Assembly (NCBI GenBank): GCA_963780345.1
Contig: CAWABU010000002.1
Span: 595,512 to 659,511 of the forward strand
Direction of reading: 5' to 3'
Length of the DNA: 64,000 nt
Origin: an uncultured Acidimicrobiaceae bacterium
GTDB lineage: Bacteria; Actinomycetota; Acidimicrobiia; Acidimicrobiales; Palsa-688
Under the pieces are notes generated by a model that worked only from the letters and a program-made list of their open reading frames with translations, was not told where the DNA came from and did not search any database. Within the stretch, counting starts at the first letter, position 1. Each line of letters begins with the position of its first letter. The translations under genes were made by a program, and so were the position numbers. Positions 26,770 through 58,597 of the stretch are shown piece after piece.

Positions 26770-28281
26770 TCAGCTCAGATTGAACGTCAACCCGGTCAGC
26801 GGGAACGTCTCCGGCCCGTTCGTCGAGCAGATCTCGACTCCGTACTCGAGCTGGGTTGGCACGTCGGACGACTTCACCAGACCCTGCGACACCAGATAGT
26901 TGAGATGGGCGAGGATGTCCACCGAGCCGGACTTCACCTGCGTGTGGCGGATGAAGATGAACTCGTCACCGAGGTTGACGAACTGGTAGGCAACGCCCCC
27001 GATGGTCACCGCAATGCCCTGGGTATTCCAGAAGGTCTGGCTCCCGCTGTCCTCGTTCCAGATCATGATCTCGGTCGACCAATTGTTCAGCCAGAGGTCG
27101 TAAGCGGCGTCGATCGACCCGTCGGTGGGGAAAGCCTCTGAGAAGGTCGAAGTGATCGACTGGTAGGCGGAGATCGGCTTCGTCGCGACTCCGTTGTCCC
27201 GGCCACCGACGTCGTACTCGCTGTTCGGGTACGTCTCGACCTGGCCCTGGACGTCCGGCTGGTCGGACACCGCATACCAACTGGCCTGGTTGCACACATA
27301 GATCGACTGCGGGCCATGACTGCCCGACCAGGCGTCGTTGTCCACCCACCAGGTGCCGGTGCTGTCGAGGCCTTGAGTACCGGTCGCCTCGTTGGTCGAA
27401 AAGGACGGCTGGGTGCAGTTCGCGCCCCCGACAGACGGCGGCCCGGTCGTCGGCGGTGGTGAACCGCCCGAAAGTGAGCCCAATGAGAAGATCTGATGAA
27501 TTGTGTTGACGACCCACGGATTGCCGGCGGGACCAACCGCGATCCGGACGGCACCGCCCAAAACTGATGTCCACCTGGATCCAGTCCAATGAAAGATGCC
27601 AAACCCACCGGGCCGAGGATTGGTGCCGACAACCCACGCCAACCCGTTGGCGCCGACTCCCACATCGATCGCCCGGCCCGTCAACAACGTCCAGCCATGG
27701 CCGTTCCAGTGATAGATATGGCCGGACGAATTCACCACCCACGGGTCGCCGCCGGGACCGACCGCGATCCGGACGGCACCACCCGCGACGGCCGCCCACC
27801 CGGTGCCGGTCCAATGAAAGATTTCGAACCCGCCCGCCCGCGGGTTGGTGCCGATCATCCACACCGACCTGTTGGCGCCGACTCCGACATCGATCGCCCG
27901 GCCCGTCAACAACGTCCAGCCATGGCCGTTCCAGTGGTAGATATGGCCGGACGAATTCACCACCCACGGGTCGCCGCCGGGACCGACCGCGATCCGGATG
28001 GCCCCACCCGCCACTGCTGCCCACCCGGTACCAGACCAACGAAAGATGCCGAAGCCGCCAGGCCGAGGATTAGTGCCGACAACCCAGGCCGACCCGTTGG
28101 CGCCCACGGCCACATCCGTCGCTCCGCCCGGGCGGGGGGTGAAGCCCGACAAGGTCGTGTCGGCGTTGACGAGGCTGTCACCCGGCGTAGTAGCAATCCT
28201 CATTATCGCCGTGCCCAGCATTCCGACCGAGACGGCGATGGCCACTACGGCCAACTTTCGAGTTCGGTTCTTCACAGTCAC
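26770..28281 (-). CDS. secreted GH12 glycoside hydrolase with an N-terminal tectonin-like beta-propeller repeat domain
   Basis: Signal peptide. At least 3 near-identical ~80-aa repeats (WAAVAGGAVRIAVGPGGDPWVVNSSGHIYHWNGHGWTLL..) like tectonin/hemolytic-lectin blades. C-terminal GH12 catalytic domain with the TEIMIWN motif. Confidence 0.75.
   Translation of the reverse strand: MTVKNRTRKLAVVAIAVSVGMLGTAIMRIATTPGDSLVNADTTLSGFTPRPGGATDVAVGANGSAWVVGTNPRPGGFGIFRWSGTGWAAVAGGAIRIAVGPGGDPWVVNSSGHIYHWNGHGWTLLTGRAIDVGVGANRSVWMIGTNPRAGGFEIFHWTGTGWAAVAGGAVRIAVGPGGDPWVVNSSGHIYHWNGHGWTLLTGRAIDVGVGANGLAWVVGTNPRPGGFGIFHWTGSRWTSVLGGAVRIAVGPAGNPWVVNTIHQIFSLGSLSGGSPPPTTGPPSVGGANCTQPSFSTNEATGTQGLDSTGTWWVDNDAWSGSHGPQSIYVCNQASWYAVSDQPDVQGQVETYPNSEYDVGGRDNGVATKPISAYQSITSTFSEAFPTDGSIDAAYDLWLNNWSTEIMIWNEDSGSQTFWNTQGIAVTIGGVAYQFVNLGDEFIFIRHTQVKSGSVDILAHLNYLVSQGLVKSSDVPTQLEYGVEICSTNGPETFPLTGLTFNLS
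27640..28120. repeat. two near-identical ~240-bp tandem repeats (part of a longer, more diverged series from ~27540) encoding the tectonin-like blades
   Basis: Two ~240-bp blocks (27640-27880 and 27880-28120) differ at only a handful of positions. Confidence 0.7.
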
Positions 28282-28509
28282 CTGGCCCCTCCAAAAAGAT
28301 AGGCCTGCCCGGATTCCTCGGTGGCCGCCGCCCCTAGCTTAACAACGACCTCCTCTGGGCTCAATCAGCGCTGATGGCCGAACGCGAGGACGGGGAAGGA
28401 GGGCTGTCCTCAGGAGCCGGTCATGGCCTCCTCTCCGGTGGCGACCGCCCATCCGCGAAGCCTATACCGGCCGAGCGGCCGAACAACACGCGGCGCGCTC
28501 CTGACGGTG

Positions 28510-29604
28510 TCAGCTCAAGTTGAACGTCAAGCCGGTAAGCGGGAACGTCTGAGAGCCGGTAGTCGAGCAAATCTCGACCCCGTACTCGAGTTGGGTCGGC
28601 ACGTCGGACGACTTCACCAGGCTCTGCGACACCAAATATTTGAGCGCGGAGAGGATGTCCACCGAGCCGGACTTCACCTGCGACTGGCGGATGAAGATGA
28701 ACTCGTCGCCGAGGTTGACGAACTCGTAGGCAACGCCTCCGACGGTGACCGGGGTGCCCTGGGTGTTCCAGTACGTCTGGCTACCGCTGTCCTCGTTCCA
28801 GATCATGATCTCCGTGCCCCAATTGTTGAGCCAGAGGTCGTAAGCGGCATCCATGCTGTCGCCGCTCGTGGGGTACTGCTCCGCGAACGAGGACGTGATC
28901 GACTGGTAGGCGGAGATGGGCTTCGTCGACACTCCGTTATTACGGCCGCCGACGTCGTACTCGGAGTTCGGGTACGTCTCGACCTGGCCCTGGATGTTCG
29001 GCTGGTTCGACACGGCATACCAACTGGCCTGGTTGCACACATAGATCGACTGCGGACCATGACTGCCCGACCAGGCGTCATTGTCCACCCACCAGGTGCC
29101 AGTGTTGTCAAGGCTTTCTGTCCCGGTAGCCTGGCTGCTCGACCAGGACGGCTGGGTGCAGTTACCACCCCCGACAGGCGGAACCGCCGTGGTCGTCGTG
29201 GACGGCGCCACCGTGGTGGTGGTCCGCGGCACCGTGGTGGTGGTCGTCCGCGGCACCGTGGTGGTGGTGGTCGACGCCACCGTCGTCGTGGTGGACCGCG
29301 GGACGGTGGTCGTAGTGGTCGACGCGGCCGTGGTCGTCGTACTCTGCGGCACCGTGGTCGTGGTGGTCGATCCCGAGTTGGAACCGCAATTCCGACTGTG
29401 CCTCCAGCACGACGGATACGTCCGGAACGGGACGGAACGCATATTGACGCGAGCCGCCTGGTAACTCGGCCCGGCGGTGGGGACGAAGAAGCCAGAGAAC
29501 CCGAAGAGCAGGAAGGTGGCCATGCTTACGCCCAAGGCTGGTCGGACTGAGCGCAACCTCCTCCCGTGGGTCACAGCCTGAATGAGACGTCGATACATCG
29601 ACAT
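28510..29604 (-). CDS. secreted GH12 glycoside hydrolase (endo-beta-1,4-glucanase/xyloglucanase family) with a Thr-rich linker
   Basis: Signal peptide, a long (TTTTTVPRS)n linker, and a GH12 domain about 90% identical to the C-terminus of 26770-28281, with the same TEIMIWN motif. Confidence 0.8.
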   Translation of the reverse strand: MSMYRRLIQAVTHGRRLRSVRPALGVSMATFLLFGFSGFFVPTAGPSYQAARVNMRSVPFRTYPSCWRHSRNCGSNSGSTTTTTVPQSTTTTAASTTTTTVPRSTTTTVASTTTTTVPRTTTTTVPRTTTTVAPSTTTTAVPPVGGGNCTQPSWSSSQATGTESLDNTGTWWVDNDAWSGSHGPQSIYVCNQASWYAVSNQPNIQGQVETYPNSEYDVGGRNNGVSTKPISAYQSITSSFAEQYPTSGDSMDAAYDLWLNNWGTEIMIWNEDSGSQTYWNTQGTPVTVGGVAYEFVNLGDEFIFIRQSQVKSGSVDILSALKYLVSQSLVKSSDVPTQLEYGVEICSTTGSQTFPLTGLTFNLS

Positions 29605-30730: not shown

Positions 30731-30800
30731 TCCACTTATCGGGCTCAGTTTGGCTATCGGGCTCAGTTTGGCTGCCGGGCTCAGTTTGGCCGGTGGGCGT
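30731..30800. repeat. 18-bp tandem repeat (gggctcagtttggctnnc) x3-4 in a non-coding region
   Basis: Direct reading of the sequence. Confidence 0.6.
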
Positions 30801-31084
30801 CAGTCGGGCGCCGCCGGGGTGGGCGGGTCCGCCCGGCCGGCCGCCGGCACGATGCCGGCGAGGCCGCTGAGGGCGAGCAGTTGGGCCAGTTCGGGGCCGG
30901 GGTGGTGCAACTGAACGGAACATCCCAGCCGGCGAGCGGTCAACTGCAAGCGGGCCAAGCCCTCGATCAGGCCCATGTCGACCCGGCTGGCGCCAGCCAG
31001 CGGCCAGCTGGTCATGACCACACCACCGCACAGGAGCACAATGACGGCGCGTCCCGGTGAGCTGTCGGTCTCTCCAGATGGCAT
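30800..31084 (-). CDS. possible STAS-domain (anti-sigma-factor antagonist-like) small protein or fragment
   Basis: The C-terminal half matches the STAS pattern (..VDMGLIEGLARLQLTARRLGCSVQLHHPGPELAQLLALSGL..). The N-terminal half is short or atypical. Confidence 0.25.
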   Translation of the reverse strand: MPSGETDSSPGRAVIVLLCGGVVMTSWPLAGASRVDMGLIEGLARLQLTARRLGCSVQLHHPGPELAQLLALSGLAGIVPAAGRADPPTPAAPD

Positions 31085-52172: not shown

Positions 52173-53420
52173 CTAATGGGCGGGGTGCGGACTGAGCCAG
52201 AAGCCATCTCGAGCTTCCGACCTGCGGCCGGCGCGGGGGACAAGGAGGGACGCCGCCAGCGTGAGATCGAGCAAGTAGATGGTGGGTTCACCCATCCCCG
52301 TATCGGTGTACGAAGCGAACAGGCAATAGGCGATCAGGAAGAGGGCAAGAGCGCTGGTGGGCCCCCGGGGTCGCAGCAGAGCCGTGATCAAGAGAACGAG
52401 GAAGATGGCCGCTTCGAGAACACAGCCCACGATTCCCTGGTTCTGGTAGGTGGCGACCCAACTGTTGTCAATCGGGAGTCCGTTGTCGACCGTTTGGTTG
52501 ATCACAGAGTCATTGGTCATCCCGGAGCCGAGAATCTTGTTGGTCTCCGGACGAGACTCGGTGAAAACCAGATGCCAGGCGTTGGTACGGCCGGACAGAT
52601 TAGAGAGAGCCTGGGCGTTCTGGCCCCGGACGAGCCACGCCGTGATCGCCGGGGAGAGGGGCACCAGGACGGTCAGGATCACGACCAGAGAAATCGCAAA
52701 GGTCCGGCGAACCCGTTGCTTGGTGACGAACAGGCTCAGGGCTGCGACGAGGAGGCCGACCACGAGGCCGCCCAGGGCAGTGCGCGTGTGCGTCGCGAGC
52801 AGAGCGATGAAGCCCCCGCCAATCAGCAGCATGGCCGGCTTGCGGCGAATCATGCCGCACAGCCACAGCACCACGGTCAAGCCAGTGAGCTCGGCCGTAT
52901 AATGCGCCGCTTGCGGGGCGGTCATCGGCCAAATTACCCCATTGAGCCGAGGGCTGCCGTAGTTCAGAGAAAAGGCCCGGCTCGGCGAGATGAGAATCCC
53001 CAGGAACAACGATCCGAGGATGGCGGTCAGCACCAGGAGCTGACCGCGTAGCAGGACCAGTCCTCGATCCCGGAACCAGGGGGTGAGCAGCCAGATGACG
53101 GCGAGGAAGACCAGAAAGCGAACACTTCTGTAGGTCGTCCCGAGCCCGACGAACCTGACGCTCATCATAAAGGCGAGGAGACCCATCAGGGTGTAGAGGC
53201 CGAGAAACAGATTCGGACGGATGATGCCCTTTCGATTGACCGTCAACGCCACTATCAGCGCGGCCACCAGGGCACCCTGGGTCAGCAGCTGCCCAAACTT
53301 GTGCGGGATAGGAAGCACCAGCGTCGGCTTCGCAAAAGCGAGCGTGTTCAGGAACAGGAGGGCCCAGACCGCGGTGACGTGCCGCAGGCGGCGCCTGTCG
53401 ACGGGGGCCTCCAACTGCAT
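52173..53420 (-). CDS. O-antigen ligase/Wzy-like polymerase family membrane protein
   Basis: About 10-12 TM helices with one large extracytoplasmic loop, in a polysaccharide locus. Start chosen at MQLEAPVDRR. The ORF extends to 53573. Confidence 0.6.
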   Translation of the reverse strand: MQLEAPVDRRRLRHVTAVWALLFLNTLAFAKPTLVLPIPHKFGQLLTQGALVAALIVALTVNRKGIIRPNLFLGLYTLMGLLAFMMSVRFVGLGTTYRSVRFLVFLAVIWLLTPWFRDRGLVLLRGQLLVLTAILGSLFLGILISPSRAFSLNYGSPRLNGVIWPMTAPQAAHYTAELTGLTVVLWLCGMIRRKPAMLLIGGGFIALLATHTRTALGGLVVGLLVAALSLFVTKQRVRRTFAISLVVILTVLVPLSPAITAWLVRGQNAQALSNLSGRTNAWHLVFTESRPETNKILGSGMTNDSVINQTVDNGLPIDNSWVATYQNQGIVGCVLEAAIFLVLLITALLRPRGPTSALALFLIAYCLFASYTDTGMGEPTIYLLDLTLAASLLVPRAGRRSEARDGFWLSPHPAH

Positions 53421-53520
53421 GGGGGCAGGTGCGCTCAGCAAGGTCACGGACCGACTCCTTCCGCCCTGCTGAGAGACGCTGGACGCCGGTTTGATACACG
53501 GCCTTCGCGGACCTCGACAC

Positions 53521-55713
53521 TCACCGTCGTGGTCCGATCGCTCTGCGTGTTCCAGGTGCATCGGTGGCGCCACCGCGAACCCGGTGCAGCTTGGAAGGCC
53601 GGCGCCGCACGAGAGGTTCGCCTACGAGCAGGCCGGACCCACCGTCGAGACGGATCTGGCCGCGCCGGCGAGAAGCGGCGGATGGCCAGTGTCGCCCACC
53701 GGATCGAATTGCAGCGAGGTCGCCAGCCGAGTTGTGGCCGGTACAGATCCCCTGGCCGAGAACGGTCGTAATCGGCTCCCGCTCACCAAAGGCTCTCGAG
53801 TACCAGCCGAGCACGGGGTCGGTTGCTCCCCTGACCAGGGACCAGGTCAGATCGCCCGGCAGCTCCAGTGTGGCCGAACGGCCGCCACTCTCCTGGTCAT
53901 CCCAGTCGAGATGCACCCTGCGACCGTTGATCACGGCGTTCACGGCCGGACCGAGGTGAAAGGCCACCTGCAGCCGATGGGCGCCGCCCGTCCACACCTG
54001 GTCCATGATCTCGATGCGCCTCTCGGCGCTCAGGAGCCGAACCGTGCGCCGATGACGCGCCGGGGGATCGAGCGCGGCGTAGCCATCATGTTCGGCCGAC
54101 CAGTGCGTCACCCGACCTTCGGCGTCGGAGCGAACCTCGAGACATCGGGTTCGAGCCGACCGGATCCAGAGGGTCGGACCACCTGAAGTCGATTGGTCCC
54201 GGCCGGCTATCTCGACGGTGTTGTGCCCGAGCGTGGACTTGAAGTAGCGGCGCCAGCTGGGCTCGCTGCTGTAACAGTAGGTTCCCGGGTCGACCAGGAT
54301 CTCGGTCCCGCCGTGCCGGACCTCGACCGCCAGGGCGTCGGCGTGAGCGTGGGCGGCGATCGACAGGAATCCGTGGGGACCGCCGTCGCAGCGACACCAG
54401 ATTTCGGGACCGTGGCCGGGAACACTTCGCATGATGGTCAGGCCGGCGTCGTCGAAGTGGTCCGGGCGCGGCGAGGGACGTCGCGCCTGCGGGTGGAATC
54501 CGACCAGGGCTGCCACCAGGGTGCTCATGGCGTCGGGTGGGGCAACGGGCCACCAGTCCGCGGCGCCGAATACCGCGGCGCCGAGGGCCAGAAGGCTGGC
54601 CCACCGGTTGGAACCCTGACCTTCGAGCACCAGCGCCCGGCCGTCGTCGCTGTCGCCCTGGCGCGGGGCGTGCAGCTCGATGTCGACGACCGATGCGACG
54701 ACGTCGAGCATGCGGCCCAGCTCTTCCCAGATGCCCGCCGGCAGAACGTAGCCGGCTGTCTCGGCCTCGGCGGCGGCCAGGAGGCCGAGCTCGGCGACGA
54801 AACCGTGGTAGTCAAAAGCCATCTCGCGGTTGACGCCGCTCGGAAACGTATTGTTCGCCAGCTGGTCACCCAGGAGGGCGGCGGCATCAGCCGCCCACTT
54901 CTGACTGTCCTCGAACCAGTTGAAGGCCAGAGCGGCCGCGAGCTGCCCGGCCGCCTCCGCGATCACGTGGTTGTTGGCCGACGACCCGCGACTCTGGAAG
55001 TTGGCCAGGTAGTGCTGGTGCCACCAGATCTGCGCCAACGCGTCGGGGTTGTCTTCGAACAGCTCCGGCGCGCCCGCCCAGCCGTCCAACAACCGGCGGA
55101 CCCATACCCAGGAGATGAGGCGCACTCCGAGCTCTATGCCGCTGGTCCAGTGGATTCCGGACAGGACCGGGTTCTGCCCCCACCACGATCGCAGCTGACG
55201 GGCGGCTCCCTCGGCGTATTTCTCGTCTCGCGAGAAGGCGAAGGCCGCCGCCAGCACCGTCACGTGATGAAGGCGGGACATTTCCCACACCTGCTTGACG
55301 TTGCCGGTTACCCGGGTATCGCGATGATCGACCGAAAAGCAATACTCGTGTTGAGGGGCCCGCGTCCCCGATACCGGATCGAGGAACCAGTCCGGTGCGG
55401 CCACGTCGGGACGCGGCACACCCAGCACGGTCCACCGCCCGGCCAGAATCTCCTCGGCCGCGGCGACAACGGCCTGGCGAGAGTCGCCGGGAACGGCCGC
55501 CAGCGCTCCGGAGGGAAGGATGGCAGTGAACGCGCCAGCCGGGCCGGCCGGGTGGTCCAGCGGCACACTGTCGATCCGGGGCTGCCGGCCCGGGCGGACC
55601 TGGTACCGCATCCAGGCTCGTTGCCGGGCGTAGTCCGACAGGCGCCAGCCAACCTCCTGGAGGGACATCCGCTGAAGCCGCCGGAGGTACCACTCCAGTC
55701 TGGACGTCCTCAC
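53521..55713 (-). CDS. heparinase II/III-like family protein (alginate-lyase-like N-domain + Hepar_II_III C-domain)
   Basis: N-terminus MRTSRLEWYLRRLQRMSLQEVGWRL, the (alpha/alpha)-toroid region with NNHVIAEAAGQLAAALAF, and the C-terminal beta-sandwich with AHAHADALAVEV. The last ~90 aa are low-complexity and overlap the Wzy-like gene. Confidence 0.7.
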   Translation of the reverse strand: MRTSRLEWYLRRLQRMSLQEVGWRLSDYARQRAWMRYQVRPGRQPRIDSVPLDHPAGPAGAFTAILPSGALAAVPGDSRQAVVAAAEEILAGRWTVLGVPRPDVAAPDWFLDPVSGTRAPQHEYCFSVDHRDTRVTGNVKQVWEMSRLHHVTVLAAAFAFSRDEKYAEGAARQLRSWWGQNPVLSGIHWTSGIELGVRLISWVWVRRLLDGWAGAPELFEDNPDALAQIWWHQHYLANFQSRGSSANNHVIAEAAGQLAAALAFNWFEDSQKWAADAAALLGDQLANNTFPSGVNREMAFDYHGFVAELGLLAAAEAETAGYVLPAGIWEELGRMLDVVASVVDIELHAPRQGDSDDGRALVLEGQGSNRWASLLALGAAVFGAADWWPVAPPDAMSTLVAALVGFHPQARRPSPRPDHFDDAGLTIMRSVPGHGPEIWCRCDGGPHGFLSIAAHAHADALAVEVRHGGTEILVDPGTYCYSSEPSWRRYFKSTLGHNTVEIAGRDQSTSGGPTLWIRSARTRCLEVRSDAEGRVTHWSAEHDGYAALDPPARHRRTVRLLSAERRIEIMDQVWTGGAHRLQVAFHLGPAVNAVINGRRVHLDWDDQESGGRSATLELPGDLTWSLVRGATDPVLGWYSRAFGEREPITTVLGQGICTGHNSAGDLAAIRSGGRHWPSAASRRRGQIRLDGGSGLLVGEPLVRRRPSKLHRVRGGATDAPGTRRAIGPRR

Positions 55714-56954
55714 CTTTTGTCAGACTTCACTGGCTCCCGTTCGACGCCGTCGCCGCCAGTCGCCAGAAGGTGCTCGTAGACGCCGAGATATCTCGGCGCC
55801 TGGTGGGTCCAGGCCAGTTCTTGCTCCACCCGGGCGCGTCCAGCCGCACCCATCGACCGCCGTCGTGCTTCGTCGTCGACGAGGTCGATCACCAGGGCAG
55901 CCAGTTCCTCGACGTCGTTTGGAGTGGCATAGGCCCCGGCCTCGGCTGCCGATGCCCTCGTCTCGAGGAGATCGAAGGCCACGACCGGAAGACCAAAGGC
56001 CATGTACTCCATGGTCTTGTTCATGGTTGAGAGATCGTTGAGGGGATTCTTCGGATCCGGCGAAATCCCGACGGCCGCGCTCGACAAGATGGCGGCGACC
56101 GTCTCATCCGGGACTCGTCCGGTGAACTCCACCGCGTCAACCAGGTTGAGACGGTCTCGAGTCTCGATCAGCTCGTTGAAGCAGTCGCCTGCTCCGATCA
56201 GCGTGAAGGCGATGTCCCTCCTCTGCAGGCGGTTGACGATGATATCGGCGGCCTCGAGGACGATGTGAACTCCGTCCTGGGGCCCCATCACACCGATATA
56301 CGCAACCAGGTGCTGTCGACCTCGCCGGAGGCTCGGGTCGACCGACCGGGGCTTGAGCCGGGTTGGGTCCGGACCGGTGCGGACCACGGTGACCCGATCG
56401 GGCGCCAATCCGTGCCGCTGGATCACGACGCCCCGATAGGAGCCGTTGGTCGAGATGACGTGGTCCGCGGCTCTCACGGTTCGCCGCTCGAGGAAGCGCA
56501 GGGCCCGGTAGAGCAGCCGGGACCCTTCCGGGAAACGGGACTGGTAGGTCTCGGGGCAGAGGTCGTGGTGATCGAAGACGAATCGGGACCCCCACAACCA
56601 ACGGCAGAGCAGGCCGATGGGCCAGAAGATATCGGGAGGATTGCAGCTTTGCACCGCAGCAAACCCCCGGCCGCGGCTCGCCCGGAGGGCCAGCCACAAG
56701 GTGGCCACAAAGGAGTAGAGGTACTCGGCGAAGAACGATGCTACGCCGCCACTGGACGCAAACGGCCGGTACTTGAACAACTCGACGCCTTCGACCACGG
56801 CATGGCCTGGATCGCCCGGGCCCTTGGGACAGACCACGGCCACCTGATACCCGGCGTCCCGCAGGGTCCGGCATTCCAGCCAGACCCGCCGGTCGAACGG
56901 TACAGGAAGATTCTGGACGATGATCAGGATGCGCTTGTTGTTGCCGGCATTCAT
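55710..56954 (-). CDS. GT4-family glycosyltransferase
   Basis: N-terminus [28 protein letters not shown]-domain with ..EYMAFGLPVVAFDLLETR.. . Confidence 0.8.
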   Translation of the reverse strand: MNAGNNKRILIIVQNLPVPFDRRVWLECRTLRDAGYQVAVVCPKGPGDPGHAVVEGVELFKYRPFASSGGVASFFAEYLYSFVATLWLALRASRGRGFAAVQSCNPPDIFWPIGLLCRWLWGSRFVFDHHDLCPETYQSRFPEGSRLLYRALRFLERRTVRAADHVISTNGSYRGVVIQRHGLAPDRVTVVRTGPDPTRLKPRSVDPSLRRGRQHLVAYIGVMGPQDGVHIVLEAADIIVNRLQRRDIAFTLIGAGDCFNELIETRDRLNLVDAVEFTGRVPDETVAAILSSAAVGISPDPKNPLNDLSTMNKTMEYMAFGLPVVAFDLLETRASAAEAGAYATPNDVEELAALVIDLVDDEARRRSMGAAGRARVEQELAWTHQAPRYLGVYEHLLATGGDGVEREPVKSDKR

Positions 56955-58597
56955 TCCGGACTCCCGGCGTCGACGCCCGCCAGGTCCGGAACGGTCAGCG
57001 GCGCGGCCATCAGGCCCCCCGGTGCCGGGCCATCCTGCTCGTCCCCCCGGTTCGGAAGAACGGCCCGGATGGCACGGACCGCGACCGCGTGGGCCGTGTT
57101 GGCGAGGATCGACAGATCCAGGCCGATCGACCAGTTGTCCACGTAAAACAGATCGAGGCGTTGGTACGCACTGAAGGCCGGGTTGTCGCGGGCCTCGCTT
57201 TGCCAGAGACCGGTCAGCCCGGGGCGCATTTGATACCGGCGCCGGAGCTCCGTATCAAAATGGAGATCCTCGTGCGGCAGGGCCGGCCTCGGCCCTACCA
57301 GGCTCATGGTGCCGGTGAGAACGTTCCAGAGCTGGGGGAGCTCGTCGATGCTCGTCGCCCGCAGGAGCCGGCCGATCCGGGTCACGCGAGGATCGTGCGA
57401 GGCTTTGAAGAGCGGCCCTCCCGTTCTCTCGTTCATCGCCTGCAGGTCGGCCAGCATCTGGGCGGCGTTGGGCACCATGGTGCGGAGCTTCAAGACGGTG
57501 ATCGGCTTGGCGTCCTGACCGACAACGGTGTTGTGGTACAGGACCGGGCCGCCGTCCTCGAGCTTGATACGCAGAGCTGCCACCAGCACGACGGGTATCA
57601 CTACAGGAGCCACCGCGACCGTAAGGAAGACGTCGATGGCCCGTTTGATCAATTTCTGCCACGTCGGGGCCCGGGGTGGTTCGACGCGAAGGACCGGGAT
57701 TCCGGATACGGGAGTGAGCTGAAGGCGCCGGCTCGACAGGCTCGGAAGACCAGGCCAGATCTGCACGTCCAGGCCCGCAGCCAGGCCCTCGCTGACCGCG
57801 GCGCTGGTCGCATCGGCTCGCAGCGCCCCGGCCACCACGATGACGGCGCTGGCGCCGGTACGCCTCGCCATATCAGGAAGGGCGCCGACGTCGAAAGGCC
57901 GTGAGACCTTGTCCATCCGTTCGCACCCCTGTCGCTCCCCCACGACACCCACGACGCGGTAGCCGAGCTCGGGCTCATCGGACAACATCTGCCACAACGC
58001 CGCCGCATCCTCGTTGCTCCCAACCAGGATGGTAGGCCGAAGGAGACGCCCCCTCGAATATCGGCCCTTGAGCCACCGACCAAAGCGCCATCGAAGGGCG
58101 AGAATCAGCCCGGCGCTGATGGCCGCGCCCGCGAGTGCGACGCCAGCCGGGTCCGCACCCGCCAGCCAGGCGCAGGCCGCATACACGAACCCTCCGGCCA
58201 GGGCAGAGAACAGCACCCGCACTACCTCCCGCGAGTGCAGGGCGCACACCCGCGAGCGGTAGAGCCCGGCCTGCTGCATCGCGGCCAGAGTCGACCCGAT
58301 AGCTGCGGCCGCGCCGAGGAACTGTCGGCCCGTGCCGGCCCCCTGAGCGAGCAGGGCCAACGGCACCCAGGCGAGGGTCAGGGCGAGGGCGTCGCTCAGC
58401 GTCAGGTGATGCCGGAGGGACAGCCCTGACACTCCCGCCTTGGGGCCGGCGCCGGCAGGCGCGCCCTCTGTGACGACAGCAAGCGGTACTGATCCCGCGT
58501 CAGAGGAGCCGTCCTGGTGGTTCTTTGCCCCCGAAGGGAGTGAATCGATCATTGAGGCCACGTTGCGCTCCTCGCCATTCCCGAGTCCCGGACCCAC
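56951..58597 (-). CDS. polyprenyl-phosphate glycosyl-1-phosphate transferase (WbaP/CpsE-like priming sugar transferase)
   Basis: C-terminal bacterial sugar-transferase domain [16 protein letters not shown]...[32 protein letters not shown], and an N-terminal 4-5 TM region. Confidence 0.85.

Follow-up and report, generated by a model that had tools for sequence, protein, structure and literature searches.

Two neighbouring minus-strand genes, referred to here as P1 and P2, lie in a 64,000-nucleotide stretch of contig CAWABU010000002.1 from an uncultured Acidimicrobiaceae bacterium (the whole of this stretch is called the window below, and positions are counted from its first letter). The reading that we favour, with a probability of roughly 0.65, is that they encode tandem, exported, retaining endo-beta-glucanases of the NopAA-like branch of glycoside hydrolase family 12 (GH12), that the six-bladed tectonin beta-propeller carried by P1 serves to hold that enzyme on a substrate or surface, and that the pair arose by duplication followed by a swap of N-terminal modules. 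Neither GH12 enzymes, nor their NopAA branch, nor tectonin lectins are new, and it is the joining of a tectonin to a GH12 domain that is the rare part. The two open reading frames (ORFs) are separated by 228 bp and were found at exactly the limits given in a first-pass annotation of this DNA, which had also recognised that they have a C-terminal domain in common.

The shared GH12 domain and the tectonin propeller of P1

The domain common to both proteins is a true GH12 domain, as the first-pass annotation had proposed, on a branch that lies outside the Pfam model of the family. A phmmer search of the PDB sequences gave one clear relative, NopAA (6SDU, E 4.4e-16), a GH12 xyloglucanase whose crystal structure and enzymatic activity have been characterised, with Glu117 as nucleophile and Glu216 as acid/base (PMC7303141). 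A profile of 14 sequences from the clade of P1 and P2 (A2) matches NopAA at E 2.8e-30, and also matches eight further GH12 sequences in the PDB (7MKR, 7MKS, 1OA4, 3B7M, 2BW8, 1H0B, 3WX5 and 1NLR) at E values from 1.4e-9 to 7.6e-6. The catalytic glutamates of NopAA have aligned counterparts in both proteins (Table 1), and in all 14 members of A2 the nucleophile Glu, the acid/base Glu, the Asp of a YDLW motif and the Met and Trp of EIMIW are invariant. Two cysteines are likewise invariant across the clade, which would be in keeping with a disulfide-bonded protein outside the cytoplasm. When P1 was modelled at full length with AlphaFold2 (AF2), the GH12 domain (residues 290-503) was predicted with a local confidence score (pLDDT) mostly of 80-98, and the top 40 matches of this model in a Foldseek search of the PDB were all GH12 structures, NopAA being first (TMt 0.82) and GH11, which belongs to the same clan, appearing only from rank 41. 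Model and search thus agree on the beta-jelly-roll fold (clan GH-C) required of a GH12 domain. The NCBIfam model NF004860 (PRK06215, named 'hypothetical protein') scores P1 at 95.9 bits and P2 at 102.3 bits (E 2.9e-29 for P2) against a cut-off of 319; the two are relatives of the PRK06215 subfamily rather than members of it.

The repeat region that precedes the GH12 domain of P1 is a true tectonin domain. The Pfam Tectonin model (PF19193) matches it at 68.1 bits against a gathering cut-off of 30 (E 9.8e-19, in three matched stretches), and among the PDB sequences it matches only Tectonin 2 from the fungus Laccaria bicolor (Lb-Tec2; 5FSB, E 1e-22). In the full-length AF2 model the tectonin half came from a scrambled mixed alignment and has pLDDT values of 30-78, with values below 50 across residues 242-286. 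Modelled alone with a clean alignment of 14 tectonin domains (A3), the propeller reaches a pLDDT of 96.3 and a predicted template-modelling score (pTM) of 0.91, with 24 strands arranged as six four-stranded blades. A Foldseek search with this model placed 5FSB and 5FSC first (TM 0.84-0.87, root-mean-square deviation 2.2 A), followed by carp fishelectin (4RUS/4RUQ) and then by generic six-bladed propellers. The first-pass annotation had suggested a tectonin-like propeller and had named a known carbohydrate-binding module (CBM) family as the contrary case; Pfam returned Tectonin and no CBM model for the region, and the structures that match it best are all beta-propellers. To judge from Lb-Tec2 and fishelectin, the propeller would have a carbohydrate-binding role, and it may reasonably be supposed to target a specific glycan.

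The DNA behind the propeller had been described as three or more near-identical repeats of ~240 bp, each encoding one blade of ~80 residues. Three tandem units are indeed present, but each measures 225 bp and encodes 75 residues that form two unlike blades, an A blade (DVGVGANGSAWVVGTNPRPGGFGIFxW...) and a B blade (RIAVGPGGDPWVVNSSGHIYHW...), and it is because three such units each supply two blades that the domain is a six-bladed propeller. Nor are the units uniformly alike. Between units 1 and 2 the identity is 87% at the nucleotide level and 85% at the protein level, with a longest in-register exact run of 61 nt. Unit 3 matches the others at only 66-68% (nucleotides) and 56-57% (amino acids) in a comparison over all 75 residues, which takes in the linker at its end.

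Origin of the pair and rarity of the fusion

Over their shared C-terminal domain of about 222 residues the two proteins are 84% identical (187/222, BLASTP E 3e-138) and the underlying DNA is 86.0% identical (573/666 nt in a codon-level alignment), which falls short of the ~90% first quoted for the catalytic domains. The 3' ends of the genes, earlier called near-identical, are 83-90% identical in nucleotides; the best tract (92-97%) covers P1 codons 311-360, and the longest exact word common to both genes is 41 nt. Homology begins just before a conserved NCTQPS motif, and the parts upstream of it are unrelated. Each of the two GH12 domains has the other as its best match, with no other retrieved protein exceeding 76% identity, and they differ by a dN of 0.094 and a dS of 0.405 (ratio 0.23); both genes appear to be under purifying selection. 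Given that these domains are each other's closest relatives, at a dS of ~0.4, the pair points to a tandem duplication specific to this lineage, after which modules were swapped. The simplest history would be one in which a P2-like gene was duplicated in tandem, not recently, after which the N-terminal module of one copy was exchanged, so that in P1 a tectonin would have taken the place of the Thr-rich and probably O-glycosylated spacer that P2 has kept. Gene conversion between the paralogues was considered and rejected: the synonymous differences between them are unclustered (permutation on runs of synonymous identity, p = 0.23), and there is therefore no evidence that conversion is ongoing.

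The GH12 clade in question comprises hundreds of metagenomic proteins that are 60-75% identical to one another and carry no Pfam annotation. We surveyed 63 GH12-type loci in species-representative genomes, a set outside which the window's own genome lies, and found the clade overwhelmingly in metagenome-assembled genomes (MAGs) of uncultured Acidimicrobiaceae/Acidimicrobiales from soils and bogs, with a few copies in Acidobacteriaceae, Saccharimonadia and one deltaproteobacterial MAG. The clade has several loci per genome (among loci L003-L065, for example, L008, L010, L020, L030 and L058 come from a single MAG), and tandem arrays of two or three GH12 copies are present in 11/63 loci (L012, L014, L016, L026, L046, L047, L052, L053, L055, L057 and L062). 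In most of the 75 GH12 ORFs reconstructed from related loci, a hydrophobic N-terminus leads into a linker rich in Thr and Pro, and the GH12 domain closes the protein; P2 has this layout, the default of the NopAA-like branch. Other N-terminal modules found on GH12 proteins of this family include CHB_HEX_C_1/Fn3_assoc domains, CWB2 cell-wall-binding repeats, a GH26 domain and a repeat module that Pfam does not recognise. In the uncultured Acidimicrobiaceae of soils and bogs the NopAA-type clade has multiplied strongly, with much shuffling of modules. Pfam annotates the domain in none of the proteins from these loci, and Pfam-based annotation pipelines will overlook the clade.

Two further arrangements were observed in the family. 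The repeat module without a Pfam match stands N-terminal to GH12 in L008, L029, L039, L046 and L061 and in protein P0106, with units of the type GYRFVAADGGVFSYGSSKFYG or GYWLxxxDGGVFxFGDAxFxGS; it is not a tectonin but may likewise be a binding module similar to a propeller. In a sub-clade formed by L047, L052, L053, L055 and L057 the usual layout is reversed, in that the GH12 domain directly follows the signal and is itself followed by an unannotated C-terminal extension of 267-356 residues.

The tectonin-GH12 fusion is rare in the collections covered, in keeping with its initial description as an uncommon architecture. A tectonin stood beside GH12 in none of the 63 species-representative loci (0/63) and in none of 14 loci from JGI metagenomes (0/14, all GH12-only), and among some 270 retrieved proteins there were four fusion lineages. 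One is the P1 type, represented by the window, by contig L001 and by P0222, an 83%-identical fragment that spans the domain junction in frame; the others are P0001, a cluster of 11 sequences around P0006, and P0011 with P0182, in which the domain order is reversed. Compared with P1, the GH12 parts of these other three lineages are 31-42% identical and their tectonin parts 65-71% (69-71% for P0001 and P0006), from which it follows that the combination has been assembled more than once. The P1 fusion is real: it is seen in two independent assemblies, its junction recurs in P0222, and both domain orders are known. Bacterial tectonin domains in general are common, and a query with the whole of P1 returned 4857 representative proteins at E<=1e-3, a figure that counts matches to both of its domains together. 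In the literature searched we found no account of a glycoside hydrolase that has a tectonin as its binding module.

Contig L001 (contig_50565 of ENA ERZ25039562) is 98.5% identical to the window across 9 kb and has the same three repeat units. Its copy of P1 differs from that in the window by three substitutions and by a 1-bp deletion at codon 285 (L001 position 12176) that splits the gene, and the gene caller gave only a 248-aa product together with a spurious antisense ORF (237 aa, L001 11303-12016) in place of the tectonin half. Taken at face value, this would favour a locus that is not functional as described, with P1 a chimera of the assembly, a pseudogene in decay or a GH12-like binder devoid of catalytic activity, all of which we consider very improbable. 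In the same contig the flotillin gene is split over four frames (L001 7060-8187), so the deletion in P1 is probably an assembly error; the pattern fits an indel-prone long-read assembly, and the frameshift was rejected as the mark of a pseudogene. The copy in the window is intact and has a good ribosome-binding site, the dN/dS ratio is low (0.23), the catalytic residues are invariant, and the junction in P0222 is in frame.

It had also been suggested that the repeats make the locus recombinationally unstable. This claim rested on near-identical DNA, which is not there, and it is left unsupported; no sign of current instability was found, L001 having the same units and the permutation test above giving no signal. 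Nor did repeat number vary, there being three units in the single near-identical assembly and in 14/14 aligned tectonin domains, as would follow if a closed propeller requires six blades. The comparison of units within A3 tells of a slower process. In 12/14 tectonins the identity between units 1 and 2 (77-98%) exceeds that between units of equal position from different proteins (mean 60%), and in P1 these two units are each other's best match, which points to concerted evolution or to repeated re-duplication within the gene. Long-term homogenisation of units 1 and 2 within a tectonin gene does therefore exist, but it is a weaker claim than instability of the locus, and a different one. P0096, which like P0097 is in A3, has three 75-aa units that are 92-98% identical to each other.

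Proposed function and setting of the locus

Both proteins begin with a basic and then a hydrophobic segment, followed by a possible AXA-like cleavage site in a hydropathy scan; for P1 the predicted elements within residues 1-40 are the basic TVKNRTRK, the hydrophobic LAVVAIAVSVGMLGTAIM and a possible VNA/D site. We infer from these segments that P1 and P2 are exported. By analogy with NopAA and other GH12 enzymes, retaining endo-beta-glucanase chemistry would then be directed at a beta-1,4-glucan backbone, of the xyloglucan, mixed-linkage glucan or amorphous cellulose type, and cleavage would proceed by double displacement with Glu404 of P1 as the nucleophile and Glu483 as the acid/base. The multivalent propeller would act as a carbohydrate-binding module, holding P1 on a glycan-rich surface and raising its local concentration there.

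Several points weigh against this proposal. Export is predicted from hydropathy, and the N-terminal segments of both proteins could be uncleaved membrane anchors. The substrate class of the Acidimicrobiaceae-type GH12 clade is assigned by analogy, and the substrate specificity of NopAA is not transferable to P1 and P2 because the identity is only ~25-30%. There is no hint of polysaccharide use among the genes neighbouring P1 and P2, nor in the gene contexts of P0001 and P0006. Finally, neither protein has a match to the Pfam Glyco_hydro_12 model (PF01670), even at E<=10. NopAA, a crystallised GH12 enzyme, likewise has no PF01670 match, and we therefore regard this failure as a gap in the model that carries little weight, and have rejected it as an argument against GH12.

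The lack of a polysaccharide-utilisation context around P1 would also sit well with a different role for the propeller, namely the retention of P1 on the cell that makes it, with the lectin binding a glycan of the producer's own envelope and so displaying the GH12 domain at the surface, much as CWB2 repeats would, instead of binding what the enzyme cleaves. Members of the same clade, P0049, P0064, P0065 and P0084, do carry CW_binding_2 before the catalytic domain (E 3.8e-43 for P0049), and the default arrangement of a hydrophobic N-terminus and a long Thr-rich stalk resembles surface display. We nevertheless think this role doubtful. The characterised tectonins named in the literature consulted bind foreign glycans, as in the case of Lb-Tec2, which recognises O-methylated sugars (mannose, fucose) found in nematodes and bacteria and for which a part in pathogen recognition has been proposed (PMC12203525), and bacterial tectonins sit on peptidoglycan hydrolases and proteases, which act on non-self or on substrate.

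The partners just mentioned come from a sample of 76 bacterial tectonin proteins, in which the tectonin is mostly C-terminal and is joined to domains that include Amidase_2, GH25, M23, astacin, M57, trypsin, kumamolisin/subtilase and Ricin-B. With such partners, tectonin behaves as a targeting module on secreted hydrolases. Three of them (Amidase_2, GH25 and M23) are peptidoglycan-lytic types and several are proteases, which fits lytic enzymes directed at cells; the closest solved relatives of the propeller, moreover, are Lb-Tec2 and carp fishelectin. P1 might on these grounds be aimed at fungi, nematodes, amoebae or rival bacteria, the lectin reading a surface glycan such as an O-methylated or fucosylated epitope while the GH12 domain attacks beta-glucan of the wall or matrix; it would then serve antagonism or foraging and not the breakdown of hemicellulose in plant litter. 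We regard this as somewhat less probable again than retention on the producer, given that the substrates of characterised GH12 enzymes are plant-type beta-1,4-glucans and xyloglucan (PMC7303141; PDB match descriptions), that the family member P0066 is fused to a GH26 mannanase-type domain, which points to hemicellulose, and that no toxin, immunity or secretion-system genes are found near P1. A broader idea, unlikely though not fanciful, is that bacterial tectonins form an unrecognised class of beta-propeller CBM that guides secreted hydrolases to unusual foreign surface glycans, such as O-methylated ones, in which case P1 would be a glycan-guided enzyme directed against foreign cells or matrices and P2 its untargeted sibling.

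We accordingly rank targeting to a substrate or surface first among the roles considered for the propeller, self-retention second and targeting against other organisms third. Both domains of P1 belong to well-known families, so that no new biochemistry is expected in principle. The lectin propeller sits where a CBM usually does, and if substrate binding is true it would represent a new CBM fold. With catalytic domains that are 84% identical, one with the propeller and the other without it, P1 and P2 form a natural matched pair that is suited to testing what the module contributes.

The features of both genes are collected in Table 1. P1 starts with GTG and has a GGAGGGG Shine-Dalgarno sequence 6-12 nt upstream, and P2 starts with ATG at the same distance from an AGGAG ribosome-binding site. 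The Thr-rich linker that had been noted in one of the genes is that of P2, where the DNA is a degenerate 24-nt repeat (7.8 copies at 29187-29369 by Tandem Repeats Finder, TRF), and the exact P2 sequence is present in a public protein collection as P0003. P1 is convergent with a DUF218-like gene whose end is 15 bp away, and the genes near the pair encode DUF218, 2-hydroxyacid dehydrogenase, STAS, flotillin, bPH and MMPL proteins. A scan found no consensus promoter or terminator between P1 and P2 or around them, and there was no credible Rfam match around the pair, the sole candidate (E 0.47) being below gathering.

Table 1. Positions of P1, P2 and their parts in the window
Feature	Position	Strand	Description and basis
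P1	26770..28281	-	503 aa; signal/anchor, six-bladed tectonin propeller, short Pro-rich linker and GH12; ORF call
P2	28510..29604	-	364 aa; signal/anchor, Thr-rich linker and GH12; ORF call
P1 N-terminal export signal or membrane anchor (predicted)	28162..28281	-	Residues 1-40; hydropathy scan
P1 tectonin beta-propeller	27487..28146	-	Residues 46-265; six blades as three A+B pairs; Pfam, 5FSB, AF2, Foldseek
Three tandem 225-bp repeats encoding the propeller	27506..28180	.	TRF period 225, 2.8 copies, 84% matches; repeat family D1
P1 inter-domain linker SLGSLSGGSPPPTTGPP	27436..27486	-	Residues 266-282; translation; same junction in fragment P0222
P1 GH12 domain	26773..27435	-	Residues 283-503, NopAA-like branch; phmmer, profile, AF2, Foldseek
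P1 Glu404, predicted nucleophile	27070..27072	-	Motif TEIMIW, aligned with NopAA Glu117 in HEIMLW; codon checked
P1 Glu483, predicted acid/base	26833..26835	-	Motif YGVEIC, aligned with NopAA Glu216 in YGVEIT; codon checked
P2 Thr-rich linker	29182..29379	-	Residues 76-141, TTTTTVPR-type repeats; translation
P2 GH12 domain	28513..29181	-	Residues 142-364; 84% identical to the P1 domain
P2 Glu265, predicted nucleophile	28810-28812	-	Codon checked
P2 Glu344, predicted acid/base	28573-28575	-	Codon checked

Some other features of the window may be recorded. Its GC content is 63-72%, mostly 65-70%. The ~1.2 kb upstream of P2 (29605-30800) has no convincing ORF and no Rfam match and is also left empty by the gene calls on L001; the 28-30 kb bin that overlaps it is slightly lower in GC (63%). 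An 18-nt tandem repeat, TATCGGGCTCAGTTTGGC (3 copies, 94% matches, 30737-30790), lies just outside a STAS-domain ORF at 30800-31084. Long antisense ORFs run opposite the tectonin repeats (27589-28302, plus strand, 237 aa) and opposite P2 (28423-29550, plus strand, 375 aa), and are artefacts of the high GC content. About 28 kb from the GH12 pair, at 56951-58597 on the minus strand, is a gene for a polyprenyl glycosylphosphotransferase of the exopolysaccharide-biosynthesis type (TIGR03025, 334 bits, above cut-off), which is adjoined by large ORFs at 52173-56954; the NCBIfam models leave most of the window's other large ORFs unmatched.

Comparison with known systems

The closest solved relative of the catalytic domain is NopAA/GunA2 of Sinorhizobium fredii and Bradyrhizobium (6SDU). 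It has in common with P1 and P2 the beta-jelly-roll, the EIM(I/L)W nucleophile motif, the YGVEI acid/base motif and the lack of a PF01670 match. NopAA, however, is an effector exported by type III secretion, for which it has a disordered signal of 48 residues, and it lacks a binding module (PMC7303141), whereas P1 and P2 have what is predicted to be a classical N-terminal hydrophobic export signal, followed by a Thr-rich linker in P2 and by the propeller in P1.

The catalytic fold is also that of CelB2 (1NLR) and Cel12A (1OA4) from Streptomyces, Cel12A from Rhodothermus (1H0B) and GuxA from Acidothermus (7MKR), the last of which shows that GH12 domains occur in multi-module enzymes. These modular enzymes use classical beta-sandwich CBMs, for example CBM2 and CBM3, and in the literature searched there was no description of a beta-propeller lectin in the CBM position of a GH12 enzyme. 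The kinship shows in profile E values of 1e-9 to 8e-6 and Foldseek TMt values of 0.66-0.79 against these modular enzymes. The clade of P1 and P2 is nonetheless a separate and highly conserved subgroup.

For the propeller, the second-best structural match is carp fishelectin (FEL, 4RUS/4RUQ; TM 0.82-0.83), which is a tectonin-type six-bladed lectin but, unlike P1, an animal egg lectin without an attached enzyme, and is 17-18% identical. The likeness to Lb-Tec2 (5FSB/5FSC) is closer, both domains having six blades, ~220 residues and G-x-N-x-W-x-V-N ... I-Y-x-W motifs. Lb-Tec2 is a free-standing fungal lectin built from six similar blades, whereas the propeller of P1 is the N-terminal module of an enzyme and is built from three A+B pairs, in which the A blades carry a PRPGG-type insertion.

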